From assembly GCF_011630105.1 (NCBI RefSeq), contig NW_022688036.1, positions 40,517-55,377 on the forward strand: 14,861 nucleotides of DNA, in the 5' to 3' direction. Under the pieces are notes generated by a model that was not told the DNA's origin, ran no database searches, and was given only the letters and a program-made list of their open reading frames with translations. Shown here one piece after another: positions 1,040 through 14,861 of the stretch (position 1 is its first letter; each line of letters opens with the position of its first letter). The translations under genes and the position numbers were made by a program. Source of the DNA: Anneissia japonica. Taxonomy: Eukaryota.

Positions 1040-1120
1040 AGTACAAGCTCGGTAGTCTAGTGTTATGGCACCAGGCTAGTTATCTGGAGGTTGTGGGTTC
1101 GATTTCCACCCGAATCACTT
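1040..1120 (+). mobile_element. tRNA-derived pol III element (SINE or tRNA pseudogene). The anticodon-arm-like hairpin CCAGG-CTAGTTA-TCTGG gives AGT (Thr-like).
   Basis: Box-A-like TAGTCTAGTG and a perfect box-B/T-arm GGGTTCGATTTCCACCC are present. The D-arm and acceptor stems do not close, so this is probably not a functional tRNA. The downstream sequence to about 1300 carries an internal AGTATTCGG duplication and is a plausible SINE body. Confidence 0.45.
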
Positions 1121-3108: not shown

Positions 3109-3230
3109 ATTTTTTTTTTTTTCATGTGTTTTTAAAATTTGTATTTTTTTTTTTTTTTTTTTTTTGAACTTTCAAAAAGGAGGTGGGTGAGGGTTTTGGT
3201 CCCCCCCCCCACCCTCAAATCTTCCCCTGT
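3109..3230. repeat. Low-complexity block of poly(T) runs (including T22 at 3144-3165) followed by a C10 tract (3201-3210) and a C-rich motif
   Basis: Read directly from the sequence: ttttttttttttcatgtgtttttaaaatttgtatttttttttttttttttttttttgaac…ggttttggtccccccccccaccctcaaatcttcccc. Confidence 0.9.
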
Positions 3231-4355
3231 CCAAGATGATTTTATAAACAATGAGATTCAAAGTGGCAAACACAGGTTATTTACACTTGTAACAGGCTTG
3301 GAAGGATAATTTCAGTCTCTGAATTTCATTATCGGACCATGAGAATATTGTGTTTGTATTTTTCTTCACAATCTTTTTCTGAAATTCATTTTCCATGTTA
3401 TGTATAGTATCAAAGAATGCCATGAGGCCTCGTACATTTGTAAGGTCACCGAAAACCATTTCATTTGAAGGTCAATTGATCTTTTCAGAGCCTTAGTAAT
3501 TCAGAAACACATTGAGTATCAACAAATACAATAAAGAGCTTTAAACAATAGAAAAATGAGAGTCTTGCATAGCCATTTATAATCTCAAAAAAAAACAAAC
3601 CAAGCTCTGAAGACTCAAACAATCATGGATTACCGAACCACAAAGGAACTTTCTAAATATCCAGACAACACCATTTTGCCCTTGACAGAAAGAGATGATG
3701 TTTAATTACGGGTGTTTTCAATTTGAGGAACACCTGTAGACACAGTTTCTTGCGGGATGTTTAGTAGATACGTATGTATATGTGGCGGAGTCAAGCCAAA
3801 CTGTCACTTCTCGCAAAAATTCAGTAAAACAGTAAAATGAGTGTTTTAAAAAAGAATCATTCAAATCTGAAATTTTCTAAGTTACAGGACTTTTTAAACC
3901 TACAGCAGTTTAAAGAACAGTATTTACGAAATCAGCCTTTAAAAGTTACAAAATCAGCCTTCAGACCAAAACCATCACCAAATCGTTAAAAATTATTGTT
4001 TTAAATTTGAAAATCTGGAACTAAAAACATAGCACGATGCATAGCAATAAAGATAGTACAAGTGACATAAAAAAATAATGTGAATAATATCATGTTTCAT
4101 TAAAGTGCTATTTTTGTTTTGATAAACAGATAACTAAATTTTTATATATTTGTATGTTAAGTAGAAAAAATAACATATTGTGAATACTTATATAGATCTA
4201 GATGAACTGACATAGGTCAATTTTCCTCCAAAAATATTTCAGTACTTTTCCCTAGAGCAGCTGATAAACCACAATTGATTTGTGCAACTAGATTTTAACA
4301 TGATTCAAACAGTTTATTATAAAGGTATTATACTTTTTAATAATATTTTTTGTAG

Positions 4356-4418
4356 GAAGATCACTTAAGAAAGCACATTCACCACCACCAGCATCACCCA
4401 GCAAAGTGTCTGACTCAG
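4356..4418 (+). CDS. Exon E3 (phase 1/1): (G)-RSLKKAHSPPPASPSKVSDS-(G)
   Basis: Acceptor is taatattttttgtag| and donor is |gtataagt at 4419. The exon is 63 nt and the phase-1 frame is open. The basic Ser/Pro composition continues that of E2. Confidence 0.5.
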
Positions 4419-4486
4419 GTATAAGTTACTGTATCTTTGTGTCGTATTCTGTGCATTCAGTATGTATCGAATAATTGTTTTATTCT

Positions 4487-4960
4487 CTTGTTTTCTCTGG
4501 TAAAATATTTCTCGCCTTGCATTTGGTCCACATCCTTCACAGCCTATCTCCAACTCCACAGTATTCCTTGAGGTAAAAATGGACAGATACACAAGTACCA
4601 CCTAGCATTCATTTGTGATAAAACCAGTTGATGTAAACCATAAAATTGTAGCTCTCTGCACTCAAGTAAAGGGTATGGGAGAATAAAATCCAAACTCTGG
4701 AGCCTCTGTTAATAGTACTTGGGAATACTACTTTTACAGTCTCAATGTGCTATTTTCCAGGAATTTTCAAATTTGATTACCTACATTTTTTCATTTTTGT
4801 GTCAATTTTTTTTTTAATTCAATTGCAAATTTTAGTGAGGGTGTATTGCCACTTAATACTAGATCAAAACTAAAAATAAGAAGTTCAATGAAAACTCGTT
4901 TAGACAAGTTTCAAAGTAAATTGATTTATTGATTATTAATATTGATGTATTCTCAATGGT
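4487..4960. repeat. R1 copy 2, segment b
   Basis: Collinear and about 80-85% identical with 1975-2420. Here segment b comes before segment a (5040-5195), the reverse of the order in copy 1. Confidence 0.65.
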
Positions 4961-5039
4961 GGATCCAGGTTGTTAATATGGTAGCTAGGCACCCCCACCT
5001 CCCCCACCCCATTTTTCGGTAATGCAGTGAAAAAAAATC

Positions 5040-5195
5040 TTGTATGTGTGCATCTCGTGTATATATGTTATGTGTAGTAGTCTCTGTAAACCATAAGAGT
5101 GTTTAATAGCCAATTACTAATTCCAAAAAAATCTCAAATTGGAGAGGATTCCCCCTCCAAAACCTTGTGCTTTGCATCTCGTGTTATCCACACCC
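5040..5195. repeat. R1 copy 2, segment a
   Basis: Near-identical to 1840-1960. A C-homopolymer tract follows at 5197-5211. Confidence 0.65.
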
Positions 5196-5255
5196 CCCCC
5201 CCCCACATTACTAGATCCTAGATCTGCAACTGGTAAAATCTTTAAACAATTGTTT

Positions 5256-5470
5256 CACAGATAGAGGGTCCAAAACTTGTAACAGGCTTAGAAGGATGAT
5301 TTCAGGCTCTGAATTTCATTATCAGACCATGAGAATGATGTGTTTATATTATTCTTCACAATCTTTTTCTGAAATTCATTTTTCATGTAATGTGTAGTAT
5401 TGAGGGATGCCATGAGGTCACGTGGACTAACTAGGTCACCGAGTACCAGTTCTGTTGAAGGTAAATTGAT
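5256..5470. repeat. R2 copy 2 (uninterrupted)
   Basis: About 85% identical to the two halves of copy 1 (2836-2860 and 3286-3480). Confidence 0.55.
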
Positions 5471-6151
5471 ATTTTGATTTAACTAGTTAACTTTAATTTG
5501 AATGTGGGAGGCTTCTTTAACAAGAAATTGGTTTTTTGGCGATTTGAAGACAATGTTCAGTGTAATTTTAATGACATCATGAAGGCCATTAAAAAATTGC
5601 AGCTATATTTATTTACCATCACTTTACATTTACATCTTTTTTTTGGGAAAAAATTTATGCATTTGGGTACTGTTAAGATTTTTTTTTTTTCTTACCTTCG
5701 AAGTCCTCCCTTACTCCCCCCTCCCCCCCTCCCCCCCAAATTATTTGTAAAAGTTATAAACAGCATTGGAGACAAAAAAAGAAAATCAGAGCTGTAAAAA
5801 GTTTTTTTTTTTTTTTATTAAGGTCTAGTTTTGCTAAAATAGTTGCTAGCCCTTATATCAGCTATTAAATATTGGATGTAGTTGTAATGTATTTTTTGCT
5901 AGCCCAGCCCTATAATTCTCAAGTCCCTGACACAGGACCACCAATGTTTACAGCCCTACAGTGAGTGTGTGTATGTTACGCTTTTTGTAAACAGGCAAAC
6001 AGGACTTTCTGGCGTCTGTTTGTTACAGATTTTCTTAACCATGTCAAACTTGACGTTGTGCCCTATTTATTGATTTTCTATTTGATTTTCTAGTTGTTGT
6101 TGTTGATTGAAATGAGCTATAAAATATAGCTCAAAAAATAGCCTAGGGTAA

Positions 6152-6174
6152 TTTTTTTTTTTTTTTTTTTTTTT
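6152..6174. repeat. poly(T) homopolymer (T23)
   Basis: Read directly from the sequence. It is absent from the equivalent position in unit B (about 8160-8200). Confidence 0.95.
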
Positions 6175-6625
6175 GCTATAAATAGTTACTATAAAGTTTA
6201 ATATTTGACTATAATCATGTCCCAAAGTCTTATTTCTGAAAATGGTCAATGAACCAGTTTTTTTTTTGTTTTTTTGTTTGGTTATTCGATTAAAGAATGC
6301 GCATATAAATTGAATTTGAATTTTATTACAGCTTCAAAGCATAATTGTTCTAATGTGAGAATTTTATAGCAAATGGTTCACCTACCAGCCACACCAACAT
6401 TAAACTATTTATTATTAACTATAATAATGGAGTGGCTAAATCCTGTTTTATTTACAAATTACTCTCGCACTGTGAGTCGGAGATGATGAGCTTAGGATGT
6501 TAACACTTTAAACAGGTTTAGTAGGAATCAATTCACGTATTAATTACTATCGAACCACATATGCCATGTTTACATCAATTAAATTTTTCTATCAAGTGTT
6601 TTTGGTTTTTTTTTCTGAAATTCAG

Positions 6626-6724
6626 CTAATGCTGCACAGTTGTCAACTGAATTTGGGGGTTTTGCAGCGCAAGATTTTGTAGGGTTTTCATCGACACCTG
6701 TTGCGGAAGGAGGAAGGCTATTTG
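6626..6724 (+). CDS. Exon E4, FG-repeat cassette type 1 (phase 1/1): (A)-NAAQLSTEFGGFAAQDFVGFSSTPVAEGGRLF-(G)
   Basis: Acceptor is gtttttttttctgaaattcag| and donor is |gtaaatcaatctattgatataa. The exon is 99 nt. Exactly one frame is stop-free, and it is the phase-1 frame. FGGF and FVGF motifs are present. Confidence 0.7.
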
Positions 6725-7073
6725 GTAAATCAATCTATTGATATAATTCCTTCTTTATCTGGTAAATTTATCTGGTTAAATGTTTTTGTCACAGCCTTTG
6801 AAAGAGATCAATAATACTGTAGATTTTTTTTTATTTTATGTTTTTTTATAATATTATTAGTAATTTAAATTCTGTCTATTTTACCAGTGGGCTCGTTATT
6901 CCATCAATTTATATTAAGTTTTGCTCTGTAAGTCAAAGGTGATGAGTTTAGGGTGTTAACACTTTGAACAGGTTTAGTAGGATGAATTCATGCTTCGTAT
7001 TAATTACCATCAAACCATATGCCATGTATACATCATTTTAATTTTTCTATCAATTTTTTTTGCTGAAATTCAG

Positions 7074-7172
7074 GTGTGTCCAGTGATAGTTTACAATCAT
7101 CAACTTCATTTGGGAGTTCTGCTGCACAAACTTTTGGAGGGTTTTTATCAGCACCATTTGGACAGCCACTTG
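7074..7172 (+). CDS. Exon E5, FG-repeat cassette type 2 (phase 1/1): (G)-VSSDSLQSSTSFGSSAAQTFGGFLSAPFGQPL-(G)
   Basis: Acceptor is ttttttttgctgaaattcag| and donor is |gtaaatcaatctattgatataa. The exon is 99 nt. It carries SFG, TFGGF and PFG motifs. Its central part is about 75% identical at nucleotide level to E4, and its flanking introns are about 85% identical to those of E4. Confidence 0.7.
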
Positions 7173-7388
7173 GTAAATCAATCTATTGATATAACTTGAT
7201 GTTGTAAATTAAAATTTATGTGTTTGAGTTAACAAAAATTCACATTTAATTATTGTATATTAAGTATAGACTATGCAATATTACATGTATACAAATTTTC
7301 AAAGGTAAAATAGTAACTAGACTGGATTTCATTAGTATTTATTGATACTTATTTATAATTATATTATCTATTTTGTGACTATTTATAG

Positions 7389-7481
7389 TACCTACAGTGG
7401 AGAAGTCAGAGGCTTTTGAGGGAGCGCAAACTGTTAACTCAAGTACACTGGCTCAAATTGAACTAATATTAGAGGCTCAAG
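7389..7481 (+). CDS. Exon E6 (phase 1/1): (V)-PTVEKSEAFEGAQTVNSSTLAQIELILEAQ-(G)
   Basis: Acceptor is ttgtgactatttatag|. An alternative AG 9 nt downstream at 7397 gives the same frame. Donor is |gtagtg at 7482. The exon is 93 nt and only the phase-1 frame is open. Confidence 0.55.
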
Positions 7482-8638
7482 GTAGTGTTAAGATTTCTTT
7501 TTTTCTTCACCTGCAAAGTCTTTCCTTATTTAGGCTGGTGTCGCCACCTTAGCAGGATTCAAGGAGAAGCCTCCCTGCTCCCATCCCCTTCTCTTCCCCC
7601 CAATTTTTTTGTAAAAGTTATAAAAGAAATGGAGAAAAAAACTTATTATATCCAAGTTTAGGAGGGACCATAATCATAAGTTTTCTGACCTCAGTCCCAC
7701 TATGGTTGGGCAGTCCCTCCGTCTGTGGGAGTCCCTCCCTGGGGCCCCCTCTTTCGACTTCCTGGCACCAATCATAAAGCAAATTATCGATGCGATGTTG
7801 GTTTTGGTTTTGCATTCTAGTATTCTGTGAGTCAAGGTTCATGGTATAATTTCATGGCCGTTTCCTTTCGTTGTTGTCAAGCTCCTCAGGTTGATTCAAT
7901 TGCAAATTAGTATTACTTATTATTATTATTGGTTCTTATATAGGAACCAATGCGATCAAGTGAGTATGTTTGTATTTTATGCTGTTTGTAAACAGGCAAA
8001 CATGACTTTAAAGGCGTCGGTTAGTTTGATTTTCTTATCCATGCTAAACGAATATGACGCTGTGCCCTGTTTATTGATTTTCTATTTTGACAAATATAAA
8101 AGGCATAACAAATGACAGACAATACCCACCCCCCCCCCACTCCTGACAAGACTAGTAAAATGTAGAATTGTTGATGACAGTAATAATATTAATAGTTACT
8201 ATAAAGTTTAATATTTGACTATAATCATGTCCCAAAGTCTTATTTCTGAAAATGGTCAATAAACCAGTTTTTTTTTTGTTTTTTTGTTTGGTTATTCCAT
8301 TAAAGAATGCGCATATAAATTGAATTTGAATTTTATTACAGCTTCAAAGCATAATTGTTCTATTGTGAGAATTTTATAGCAAATGGTTCACCTACCAGCC
8401 ACACCAACATTAAACTATTTATTATTAACTATAATAATGGAGTGGCTAAATCCTGTTCTATTTACAAATGACTCTCGCACTGTGAGTCGGAATTTAATGA
8501 TGAGCTTAGGATGTTAACACTTTAAACAGGTTTAGTAGGAATCAATTCACGTATTAATTACTATCGAACCACATATGCCATGTTTACATCAATTAAATTT
8601 TTCTATCAAGTGTTTTTGGTTTTTTTTCTGAAATTCAG

Positions 8639-8737
8639 CTAATGCTGCACAGTTGTCAACTGGATTTGTGGGTTCTACAGCGCAAGATTTTGGAGGGTTT
8701 TCATCGACACCTGTTGCAGAAGGAGGAAGGCTATATG
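8639..8737 (+). CDS. Exon E7, FG cassette type 1 paralogue of E4 (phase 1/1): (A)-NAAQLSTGFVGSTAQDFGGFSSTPVAEGGRLY-(G)
   Basis: Splice-site context is identical to E4. There are 6 differences in 99 nt versus E4, and 5 of them change the amino acid. Confidence 0.7.
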
Positions 8738-9086
8738 GTAAATCAATCTATTGATATAATCCCTTCTTTATCTGGTAAATTTATCTGGTTAAATGTTTTT
8801 GTCACAGCCTTTGAAAGAGATCAATAATACTGTAGATTTTTTATTATTTTATATTTTTTTATAATATTATTAGTAATTTAAATTCTGTCTATTTTACCAG
8901 TGTGCTCGTTATTCCATCAATTTATATTAAGTTTTGCTCTGTAAGTCAAAGGTGATGGGTTTAGGGTATTAACACTTTGAAGAGGTTTAGTAGGATGAAT
9001 TCATGCTTCGTATTAATTACCATCAAACCATATGCCATGTATACATCATTTTAATTTTTCTATCAATTTTTTTTTCTGAAATTCAG

Positions 9087-9155
9087 GTGTGTCCAGTGAT
9101 AGTTTACAATCATCAACTGCATTTGGGAGTTCTGCAGTACACGGACGACCATTTG
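9087..9155 (+). CDS. Exon E8, FG cassette type 2 paralogue of E5 with a 30-nt in-frame deletion (phase 1/1): (G)-VSSDSLQSSTAFGSSAVHGRPF-(G)
   Basis: Acceptor is tttttttttctgaaattcag| and donor is |gtaaatcaatctattgatatag. The exon is 69 nt and the frame is preserved. Confidence 0.65.
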
Positions 9156-9922
9156 GTAAATCAATCTATTGATATAGTTCCTTCTTTATGTTGTAAATTT
9201 AAGTGTGTGTGATTGAGTTAACAAAAATTCTGATTTGATTATTGCATATTATGTATAGACTATGCAATATTACAATTACACAAATTTTCAAATGTAAAAT
9301 AACAACTAGACTTGATTTCAGTACCTAAAATGTCTCCTAATCAGTAAAACTATTAAAAATATATTGATTTTTGCACCAATGGCGTTCCATATTACTTCTT
9401 TGCACCAGTAGCGTTCCATACTATGCTTCTTCTGGATTCTGTGATTCAAATTCAAGAACATAAAAAGTTTCTTGTTATAAATAGGCACTCGTGGCGCTTT
9501 CCGAAAGTTTCTAACACCAGCAAAAATCAATAAATTGGAGACTTGTGGCAAGTCTAAATAACAAGTGACACATACACATTGGTGGCTCCCCTGGAAGTTC
9601 CGAAAAGTGGATTTCTGAAACTCATAATTTGTAATATTCTGTTAAAATTTTCATTCATTTGGGTATCGTTTATGGAGCTAAAGCAGGAGAAATAGAGGGT
9701 GGGGATGCAGAAAGAAATGTTCACAGACCTCACCTTCTGCACCCCCATCCCCCCCTCTTTTTGCCTATGGGCCTGCACATCATGTCTATATATGGGCGTA
9801 CAACAGTTAAAGAAAAAGTCTGTACAGGGGTTTATACAGTTAATTCTAAATTTATAACTGTATGACTCATTTTTTGCTGAGCCCTCACAATTATTAAAGA
9901 TTTTTTTTTATATTGATACTAG

Positions 9923-10117
9923 GAGCAATGAGATCATCTTATAATGTATTACCACGACCATTTAGTGGCACTTTTGCAAAACCAGGACTACCGAGGGCCG
10001 GCATTCCTCCAACACTACCAACACTAACCGGTGTACCTCCTCCTCCTCCACCACCTGGACTAAGTGGTGCACTTTCATCAGGATCGTCACCCATACACAT
10101 CAAACCTCATATTTCAG
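9923..10117 (+). CDS. Exon E9, polyproline exon (phase 1/1, 195 nt): (G)-AMRSSYNVLPRPFSGTFAKPGLPRAGIPPTLPTLTGVPPPPPPPGLSGALSSGSSPIHIKPHIS-(G)
   Basis: Acceptor is ttttttttttatattgatactag| and donor is |gtatgatc at 10118. It corresponds to six-frame ORF 9913-10128. Proline is encoded by a mix of CCT, CCA and CCG codons, so this is not a pure microsatellite. Confidence 0.75.
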
Positions 10118-11379: not shown

Positions 11380-12045
11380 TTCATATTAGTGATTGAGTTG
11401 ACTAACATTCTCATTTAAAAATAGTTTGTTTTTTATTTATTTATTTTTTATTTATTTATTTAGGTATACGGTAAAAAGTACAAAAAGCAAAAAAGTCGAA
11501 AGTTATTGCAGTACAAAAATTCAAGAAATCTAAATATGCATTCAAACAAACAAAAAAATGATATCAAAATATATATTTACAATTTCATCATTTTAAAAAT
11601 ATAAACTTCTTTTTCATTTTTTTTTCCTGTATTATTCATTATTGCAATTACAATTATTATTGAAAATATTATTACCATTTATTTACTGTACATTTATTAA
11701 GTATAGACTATGGTTATTACATTTACACAATTTTTTTAAAGTATTACAACAAATGACCCATAAGCCTTGATCAGTGGTGGATGGTAAAAGCAAGAAGGGT
11801 ATACAGTGTATCCCCTACCTAAAACCATGAAGATTCCTAATTTTATACCTCCATGCTAAAACTAAAACTAAAGAAAAAGAATATATGGTACAGTTTCTCC
11901 GTTTTACTTGGAATTTCTTAGCCACAATCTTCTATACAAATTTTTATTCATTGGAAATACAAATACAATTAATTGGAATAGCAAAGTTTTTCAATCTTTG
12001 GCATACTTTGGTATCTCGGGATAAGTCACACTCGGGCTTATCGCG
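11380..12045. repeat. Repeat family R3, copy 1 (about 650 bp, intronic)
   Basis: About 90% identical to 14292-14861: ggtatacg[g/a]taaaaagtacaaaaagcaaaaaagt…aatttcatcattttaaaaatataaac…gatcagtggtggatggtaaaagcaagaagggtatac…ggtatctcgggataagtcacactcgggc. Its 5' part is homologous to the intron segment downstream of the FG exons (7215-7320 and 9218-9300). Confidence 0.75.
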
Positions 12046-12559: not shown

Positions 12560-12754
12560 AAGTGCTAGCCTATCGTCGTCCTTCTGCACAACTACGTCGA
12601 CGTAGTAGCACACGTAAATACGATGTAGCTCCTCCTCCTCCCTCTCCGCCGCCTGGATCTAGTGGCAGCCTTCCACACCCGCCACCACCAGCACAACAAC
12701 AGAGTCGAATGCCTCCTCCACCACCACCTGCACTAAGCGCAGCTCCTGTTTCAG
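12560..12754 (+). CDS. Exon E10, basic/RS-like plus polyproline exon (phase 1/1, 195 nt): (E)-VLAYRRPSAQLRRRSSTRKYDVAPPPPSPPPGSSGSLPHPPPPAQQQSRMPPPPPPALSAAPVS-(G)
   Basis: Acceptor is tttcaattttgatttccag| and donor is |gtatgttttt at 12755. It corresponds to six-frame ORF 12562-12882. Its length is identical to E9 (195 nt). Confidence 0.75.
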
Positions 12755-13798: not shown

Positions 13799-13879
13799 AA
13801 GGAAAATATGAACGGGCATATTATGATGATAGTTATGAACGTAGACTAAATAAAAGGCAAAGCAAAGCTCTTGTTCCAG
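13799..13879 (+). CDS. Exon E11 (phase 1/1, 81 nt): (E)-GKYERAYYDDSYERRLNKRQSKALVP-(G)
   Basis: Acceptor is gaattgtttttttcag| and donor is |gtatgattat at 13880. Only the phase-1 frame is open. The phase-1 exit implies at least one further exon downstream, outside or at the edge of the window. Confidence 0.55.
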
Positions 13880-14291: not shown

Positions 14292-14861
14292 ATCGATTTA
14301 TTTAGGTATACGATAAAAAGTACAAAAAGCAAAAAAGTTGAAAGTTAATGCAGTACAAAAATTCAAGAAATCTAAATATCCATTCAAACAAACAAAAAAA
14401 TGATACCAAAATATATATTTACAATTTCATCATTTTAAAAATATAAACTGCTTTTTCATTTTTTTTTTATGTATTATTCATTATTGCAATTACAATTATT
14501 ATTGAAAATATTATCACTATTTATTTACTGTACATTTATTAAGTATAGACTATGGTTATTACATTTACACAATTTAAAAAAAAAAACCCTTGATCAGTGG
14601 TGGATGGTAAAAGCAAGAAGGGTATACATTGCATCCCCTGCCTAAAACCATGAAGGTTCCTAATTTTATACCTCCATGCTAAAACTAAAACTAAAGAAAA
14701 AGAATATATGGTACAGTTTTCTCCATTTTAATTGTAATTTCTTAGCCACAATCTTCTATACAAATTTTTATTCATTGGAAATACAAATACAATTAATTGG
14801 AATAGCAAAGTTTTTCAATCTTTGGCATACTTTGGTATCTCGGGATAAGTCACACTCGGGC
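14292..14861. repeat. Repeat family R3, copy 2 (truncated by the window end)
   Basis: See R3 copy 1. It carries an indel at 14575-14592 relative to 11745-11768. Confidence 0.75.

Follow-up and report, generated by a model that had tools for sequence, protein, structure and literature searches.

Nested tandem duplication of FG-motif exon cassettes, with probable partial re-homogenisation, in a candidate PARP4-like gene of Anneissia japonica

How can a protein tail gain copies of a short motif-bearing exon and stay in frame, and how do the copies fare once they lie side by side? This question is raised by a stretch of 14,861 nucleotides (nt) from Anneissia japonica (contig NW_022688036.1, positions 40,517 to 55,377), referred to here as the window, in whose coordinates all positions are given. 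The original prediction, made from the letters of the sequence, was that exons carrying phenylalanine-glycine (FG) motifs had been amplified by nested tandem duplication at about 5640-9320. We conclude that the region probably records a nested in-frame duplication of FG-motif exon cassettes, followed by partial re-homogenisation, in a PARP4-like or related gene. The repeats, their nesting, the two classes of identity between copies, and the conservation of frame, phase and splice sites are direct observations on the DNA; the gene in which they would lie, a multi-exon gene on the + strand that spans 5667-9327 and whose in-window exons are all symmetric, is our model.

When we compared the region with itself by blastn, both of the diagonals that had been described, at about 450 bp and about 2.0 kb, were present and lay far above the best score (41 bits) obtained from 20 shuffles of 5400-9600. 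The longer one pairs 5960-7334 with 7959-9323 (1399 columns, 87.5% identity, 58 gap columns, 1457 bits). The shorter one occurs in each of the two resulting units, pairing 6450-6785 with 6907-7225 in the first (71.6% identity, 189 bits, E=1.8e-49) and 8457-8783 with 8917-9201 in the second (68% identity, 136 bits), and two cross-unit cassette pairs also aligned. Blastn and the blocks of a global alignment define unit A as 5667-7481 on the + strand, comprising intron sequence, a type-1 FG exon, a type-2 FG exon, and the exon at 7389-7481. Unit B (7482-9327, +) runs from the first intron base past the donor of that last exon to a point 6 nt into the exon's counterpart. The units are thus collinear, as had been proposed, and their homology starts at 5667 and 7482 in the global alignment rather than at 5640 and 7490.

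Within each unit the FG exons lie 448 bp apart from start to start (6626 to 7074 and 8639 to 9087), which is inside the predicted range of 447-449 bp. The type-1 cassette of unit A (6450-6785, +) consists of about 175 nt of conserved upstream intron, the exon at 6626-6724 (exon 6 of our gene model; +, 99 nt, phase 1/1, ANAAQLSTEFGGFAAQDFVGFSSTPVAEGGRLF), and about 60 nt of downstream intron, and the type-2 cassette of the same unit (6907-7225, +) contains exon 7 at 7074-7172 (+, 99 nt, phase 1/1, GVSSDSLQSSTSFGSSAAQTFGGFLSAPFGQPL). The corresponding cassettes of unit B contain exon 9 at 8639-8737 (type 1, +, 99 nt; cassette 8457-8798, +) and exon 10 at 9087-9155 (type 2, +, 69 nt; cassette 8917-9201, +). 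All four FG exons are in phase 1/1, have lengths divisible by three (99, 99, 99, and 69 nt), and are bounded by an acceptor ...TTCAG and a donor GTAAAT. The common intron blocks of the original prediction were likewise recovered in all four copies, as upstream blocks together with an identical donor-side string, GGTAAATCAATCTATTGATATA, and the 30-nt in-frame deletion that it placed in unit B corresponds to the difference between the 99-nt and 69-nt type-2 exons.

Tandem duplication of symmetric (phase 1-1) exons is a classical route for the expansion of repeat or disordered regions in metazoan genes. The array has the features by which that process is recognized, namely adjacent homologous exons in one orientation, homology that continues into co-copied flanking introns, retention of frame, phase, lengths divisible by three and splice sites, and nested rounds of copying. 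It differs from the classical picture in that the exons have outpaced the introns copied with them, a neighboring exon copy has been lost, and part of the array appears to have been re-homogenised.

The order of the two duplications can be read from a four-way alignment of the cassettes, which contained 72 type-specific sites, no unit-specific sites, and no cross-patterned sites. In addition, both type-2 copies have in common an unconverted stretch 3' of the exon that type 1 lacks. Because of this 72:0:0 pattern and the confinement of the 3' flank to the type-2 copies, we infer that the split between type 1 and type 2 preceded the split between the units. This is the order that had been claimed, with the cassette duplicated before the unit; the unit duplication itself is nevertheless old, with unconverted flanks about 14% diverged.

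The units had also been said to share 97-98% identity at a constant offset of 2011-2022 bp. A mismatch map and sliding identity showed that this holds in a core alone (6181-7122 in unit A and its partner 8191-9135 in unit B, both +), in which there are 22 mismatches in 942 nt (97.7% identity), two small indels, and an offset of 2010-2014. The collinear flanks at 5667-5778, 5966-6082, and 7159-7334 are only 80-88% identical to their partners (about 14 substitutions per 100 nt), two pairs of segments are not alignable between the units (5779-5965 versus 7642-7966 and 6083-6175 versus 8087-8185), and, taken over the full unit, offsets vary between 1815 and 2035. The transition is sharp: divergence is 2.3% in the core and about 14% in the flanks, with steps at ~6181 and ~7123, and there are 1-3 substitutions per 100 nt in 6181-7122 versus 14 in 7194-7334 and in 5960-6082. 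On the right, identity drops within the type-2 exon. Exon 9087-9155 belongs to the core for its 5' 49 nt, which are near-identical to copy A, whereas its 3' end is old diverged sequence that carries the 30-nt deletion and differs at 4 of 14 nt.

Because a single recent duplication would diverge uniformly, these data argue for an older duplication of about 1.8 kb and a later homogenisation of a tract of about 0.94 kb, for which gene conversion between the units would be the simplest process. A sharply bounded ~0.94-kb tract of 97.7% identity within paralogous sequence of about 86% identity resembles the outcome of ectopic gene conversion between tandem paralogs. One patch in the type-1 exon departs from this pattern. 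Copy B of that exon differs from copy A by seven substitutions, six of them non-synonymous, and five of the seven fall within 31 nt (6650-6680 versus 8663-8693), a divergence of about 16% that equals the level of the old flanks in a surrounding tract that is 98-99% identical. All five alter an amino acid (E>G, G>V, F>S, A>T, and V>G). The patch may be an island that escaped conversion, in which case it would be no sign of positive selection, or may reflect later fast protein change.

Unit A ends with exon 8 (7389-7481, +, 93 nt, phase 1/1, VPTVEKSEAFEGAQTVNSSTLAQIELILEAQ), which is single-copy and lies between the two type-1/type-2 pairs. The duplication had been predicted to stop at the counterpart of this exon and to read into a stop codon there, and this was borne out: the remnant of the unit-B copy (9322-9347, +) agrees for 6 nt (TACCTA) before it diverges and reaches a TAA at 9345-9347. 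We found no homology between the units beyond 9327, and no alignment above the shuffles that would represent a second copy or relic of exon 8 upstream of 5667 or downstream of 9327. A repeat able to mediate unequal crossing-over was sought at the unit boundaries, and none was present at the end of unit B; the 4-nt GGTA common to 5666-5669 and 7480-7483 is too weak to count as one.

Both of the predicted duplication levels were recovered, and at least one older level exists besides. A cassette at 3285-3485 (+) surrounding the 63-nt exon 3 (3408-3470, +, phase 1/1) and its paralog at 5275-5475 (+) surrounding the 63-nt exon 5 (5398-5460, +) are 85% identical to each other at an offset of 1990, with 71% identity in the exon and 91% in the upstream intron. 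In both, the upstream-intron blocks of the FG cassettes are recognizable and the donor region is related, and blastn aligned 3274-3388 with 8963-9085 at 67% identity. Because these 63-nt exon cassettes carry the intron blocks of the FG cassettes, they point to a third, older level of duplication. A repeat of about 450 bp at 1969-2416 and 4478-4957 (77% identical) is collinear with the cassettes of exons 3 and 5, and may be a sign of an older, larger duplication unit.

Are the FG exons coding? Frame, phase, and both splice sites are kept in four of four copies despite 30% divergence between type 1 and type 2. The indels in the FG exons measure 9, 9, and 30 nt, whereas most of the approximately 19 indels in the introns are not multiples of three. 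The positions of F, G, and AAQ are kept between type-1 and type-2 exons while the spacers change, and the four exons together encode eight FG dipeptides in about 120 residues, or about one per 15. On the strength of frame, phase, splice sites, and exon indels confined to multiples of three, the predicted in-frame amplification of FG repeats stands as a property of the DNA; that the exons are spliced into messenger RNA is assumed in the prediction, and is suggested here by the sequence.

The exons have diverged two to three times as far as their flanking introns at three levels of paralogy. In the young core, 10 of 154 exon positions differ (6.5%) versus 16 of 798 intron positions (2.0%; Fisher p 0.005); between type 1 and type 2 the values are 30% for the exon and 13-15% for the intron (Fisher p 0.001); and between exons 3408-3470 and 5398-5460 they are 29% and 9%. 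Synonymous distances in the exons (0.38-0.45) also exceed the intron distances. At 13%, the intron divergence between type 1 and type 2 does not exceed the 14% of the younger unit flanks, and because divergence is so low at the older level, we infer that either constraint or repeated homogenisation has acted on about 170 nt upstream and about 60 nt downstream of these exons. A search for conserved RNA structure in the intron blocks gave -8 kcal/mol over 167 columns and no compensatory pairs, a search for docking/selector pairing found weak inverted repeats only, none of them supported, and a scan of metagenome contigs for the conserved intron motif gave no matches. Two specific candidates for the intron blocks and the exons that they flank were tried and rejected. 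Mutually exclusive exons of the Dscam type would have required pairing that was not supported, and the exons differ in length (99 versus 69 nt) and are additive in frame. For an intronic small nucleolar RNA, ATGATGA and CTGA boxes are present, but no terminal stem could be seen by eye, and Rfam gave no match above noise.

We next considered which gene these exons would belong to. The sole Pfam match among the in-window exons is in exon 1 (325-507, +), which has a phase-1 acceptor and a phase-1 donor and encodes an actin N-terminal fragment (Pfam Actin positions 6-54, about actin residues 8-65). The phase-1 acceptor at 325 implies coding exons farther upstream. The nucleotide-binding loop motif of the fragment is degenerate, with LDAGSL instead of VDNGSGMC, and the window peptide carries LDAGSL and EA-G, as in the fragment-bearing proteins described below, not the VDNGSGMC and DEAQSKRGILTL of actin. 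An exact look-up of the exon-1 open reading frame in protein databases returned no match, and the full spliced window protein matched actins alone, through exon 1. When 1.84 billion representative proteins were searched exhaustively by phmmer, with the 61-residue peptide of exon 1 as the query, many actins were returned, and in addition proteins in which this fragment alone is embedded. In a Mytilus edulis PARP (P0135, 1730 amino acids) with a BRCT-PARP-VIT-VWA arrangement, the fragment lies at 1293-1347 and is followed by a proline-rich tail; in the PARP4 of Magallana gigas (P0144) it lies at 1264-1318 and is followed by an Hsp70 substrate-binding piece. The window fragment is 65% identical to the former and 62% to the latter. 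The fragment also occurs in VIT-VWA proteins, in ubiquitin-containing proteins, and in stand-alone proteins of metagenomic eukaryotes (P0134/P0001, P0003, and P0090), in which about 55-60 actin residues and a charged stretch are followed by FG-repeat and polyproline tails, with an obvious tandem FG-repeat array in P0134. An acidic stretch precedes the fragment in homologs and is absent from the window. The stand-alone proteins differ from the window protein in that they are uncharacterized, P0001 is encoded without introns, and their tails are not alignable to it.

The resemblance to mollusc PARP4, in which the LDAGS fragment follows the VWA domain, includes a phase-1 intron just past the fragment. 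At the Mytilus locus (L002, CAJPWZ010001022.1) the actin-fragment exon ends ...EACGKP+g in phase 1, and the window exon ends ...EAVGSFGLL+a, also in phase 1, three codons later; in Mytilus the next exon is 48 nt long and in phase 1/1. The tails are alike in being disordered and proline-rich, and the 1.1-kb tail exon of Mytilus PARP4 (55405-56502) contains internal tandem repeats at offsets of ~280-310 bp with 80-84% identity. In vertebrates, PARP4 exon 30 is disordered, variable in length, and has a ratio of non-synonymous to synonymous substitution rates (dN/dS) above 1 (PMC4038475). FG motifs do not stand out in either mollusc tail, and the tail exon is a single large one in vertebrates as well as in Mytilus. 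The PARP4 domain that interacts with MVP is carried in Mytilus by the gene annotated at 56618-58505, 113 bp downstream of the tail exon, so the Mytilus annotation probably splits one gene in two. That C-terminal domain (PF26156) had no match among the in-window exons; given its place after the tail in Mytilus, it would here lie beyond position 14861. Taken together, these comparisons tip the balance slightly toward a gene that encodes the post-VWA tail of a PARP4-like protein (a vault PARP or VIT-VWA protein) or a stand-alone relative.

Several observations weigh against parts of the reading that we prefer. The dN/dS ratios of the FG exons (0.67-2.2 by the method of Nei and Gojobori) are about 1 and do not indicate purifying selection on the peptide, and exons that are less conserved than the adjoining introns are the reverse of the usual coding signature. 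Searches of 5.8 billion proteins, made with and without the polyproline exons, gave no homologs of the FG, polyproline, or other tail exons, and pairwise comparison of the window tail with the Mytilus and Magallana PARP4 tails and with the stand-alone proteins yielded compositional similarity only. The BRCT-WGR-PARP catalytic region and the VIT and VWA domains that follow it would fall outside the window, upstream of position 1, as would the MVP-interaction part on the downstream side, and the Mytilus tail is one large exon where the window has many small ones. Finally, the identity step is the one observation behind the putative gene conversion.

How do these points bear on other explanations of the locus? 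It is possible, if rather unlikely, that the FG cassettes are regulated alternative exons that can be skipped, with the conserved ~170 nt upstream and ~60 nt downstream acting in splicing regulation and tail isoforms varying in the number of FG modules. Such exons typically have conserved flanks, symmetric lengths, and weak-looking splice sites, and all three are seen here: at three paralog levels the exons are less conserved than the introns that flank them, with type-1/type-2 intron divergence not above that of the younger unit flanks, every exon is symmetric, and, by reading the sequence, the donors lack a +5G and the polypyrimidine tracts are interrupted. The intron blocks, however, yielded no conserved RNA structure or selector/docking pairing, and patchy gene conversion, which the locus evidently undergoes, could account for their similarity. 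The same excess of exon over intron divergence would suit a quite different and improbable account, in which the FG exons are unexpressed parts of a large intron, being duplicated non-coding sequence or repeat-derived pseudo-exons with fortuitous open frames. A dN/dS of about 1, the want of a protein homolog for the FG exons in the databases searched, and the other dispersed repeats in the window are all consistent with it. Non-coding sequence is nevertheless hard to reconcile with the retention of AG, GT, phase, and an open coding frame in four copies at 30% divergence, with three exon indels that are all multiples of three among intron indels that mostly are not, with the retained positions of the F/G motifs, and with a frame that is continuous with nine other symmetric exons, the first of which has relatives that carry FG and polyproline tails.

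Other alternatives concern how the copies arose and what the protein is. If there had been a single recent ~2-kb duplication without gene conversion, the low-identity flanks would be unrelated collinear repeats that were already in place. Part of the 3' flank (7238-7310/9247-9305) does resemble a repeat at 11671-11752 and 14514-14586, and unalignable inserts bound the core on the left. The flanks at 5667-5778, 5966-6082, and 7159-7334 are, however, collinear on both sides of the core with matching offsets, and the right-hand step lies inside a type-2 exon whose 3' end is homologous but old; because of these collinear flanks and the step within the exon, an older duplication is needed beneath the young tract, and we consider a single event quite improbable. 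We give still less credence to an assembly artefact, whether a pair of haplotypes set in tandem or a mis-joined or collapsed repeat. A core difference of about 2% is within the range of heterozygosity of many marine invertebrates, but alleles in tandem would be uniformly similar. Here the flanks of the two units are 14% diverged, two segments bear no relation to their counterparts, one type-2 exon lacks 30 nt, and one unit has lost a whole exon, which makes an artefact unlikely. Least probable of all is that the gene encodes an FG nucleoporin whose permeability-barrier domain is extended by the cassettes. The likeness to nucleoporin FG domains is one of composition only (FG/GF about every 15 residues, drifting S/T/A/Q-rich spacers, few charges): no anchor domain or homology was found, Pfam gave Actin alone, and homolog searches were empty, whereas the polyproline exons and the different N-terminal domain, which is an actin fragment, suggest the PARP4-like or actin-fragment family instead.

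The nested in-frame duplication with partial re-homogenisation that we favor can be described as a series of steps. A cassette of about 450 bp, made up of an exon of about 33 residues with FG/GF motifs and its flanking intron, would have been tandemly duplicated to give the type-1 and type-2 exons. A block of about 1.8 kb that contained both cassettes and the next exon would then have been tandemly duplicated in turn, after which the second copy of that next exon would have been destroyed and the second type-2 exon would have lost 30 nt in frame. A tract of about 0.94 kb over both FG exons would subsequently have been re-homogenised between the units, with gene conversion as the likeliest process. 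Since all exons are symmetric, any copy that survives could be spliced in frame, and each added copy would lengthen an intrinsically disordered FG-motif tail by 23-33 residues. In this tail the actin N-terminal fragment would come first and the polyproline exons later.

The mechanism is textbook exon duplication, so that a known process is documented here rather than a new kind of element. The locus is a compact example of how a disordered, motif-bearing region grows by nested copying of cassettes, trimming, and partial homogenisation. Of more interest are two side results, the exons that outpace their co-copied introns and the actin fragment with which the tail begins in mollusc vault PARPs and in the stand-alone FG/polyproline proteins. 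Should the gene prove to be a relative of PARP4, the known hypervariability of the tail would extend from vertebrates to invertebrates. A bolder proposal, which we think improbable, is that what we see in the window is a vault-PARP-like protein's hypervariable recognition tail in an invertebrate, an exon-cassette counterpart of vertebrate PARP4 exon 30 (positively selected and variable in length) that is actively diversified by cassette duplication, by conversion that spares or re-diversifies exons, and possibly by combinatorial inclusion. If this were true, the actin fragment with its FG/polyproline tail would be an ancient, undescribed module common to vault PARPs and stand-alone protist proteins; we found no description of an actin fragment in PARP4 in the PARP4 literature searched.

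The window is AT-rich (G+C about 25-41%), with introns of metazoan style. The gene model, which was built from the sequence, would consist of 13 consecutive AG...GT-bounded segments on the + strand, each a multiple of three long and in phase 1/1, that join into a continuous open frame of 465 codons. Stops are absent from the coding frame in all 13; exons 4, 7, 9, and 10 are also stop-free at one further frame offset, and the other nine only in the coding frame. The exons not yet located are exon 2 (2627-2719), exon 4 (4356-4418), exon 11 (9923-10117), exon 12 (12560-12754), and exon 13 (13799-13879), all on the + strand and in phase 1/1. Exons 11 and 12 encode polyproline, are both exactly 195 nt long, and each contain runs of six to seven prolines; they could represent a duplicate pair of even greater age, with no DNA similarity left.

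Other repeats are scattered among the introns, and no Pfam match to a transposon protein remnant was found among the window open reading frames. An AT-rich repeat of 585 bp occupies 11454-12037 and 14296-14861 in two downstream introns (93% identical, the second copy reaching the end of the window); a piece of about 70 bp of it is also present in both units, at 7238-7310 and 9247-9305, and it probably represents a transposable-element family. A 121-bp repeat at 1840-1960 and 5068-5188 (97% identical), which is not collinear, has the look of a dispersed element that was inserted recently. Within the first intron of the putative gene, ARAGORN found a sequence at 1046-1118 (+) that resembles a transfer RNA for threonine (tRNA-Thr(AGT)) and is directly followed by TTTT; it scored 39 bits against the Rfam tRNA model, for which the gathering score is 29, and could be either a genuine tRNA gene or the leading part of a tRNA-derived short interspersed element. 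Short C-rich/G-rich runs (CCCCCCTCCCC-like) occur in introns at 3187-3215, 4985-5015, 5195-5215, 5700-5740, 7566-7610, 8125-8150, and 9740-9765. Some of them adjoin GGTGGATCCA-like motifs, and the runs may be parts of one repeat family.

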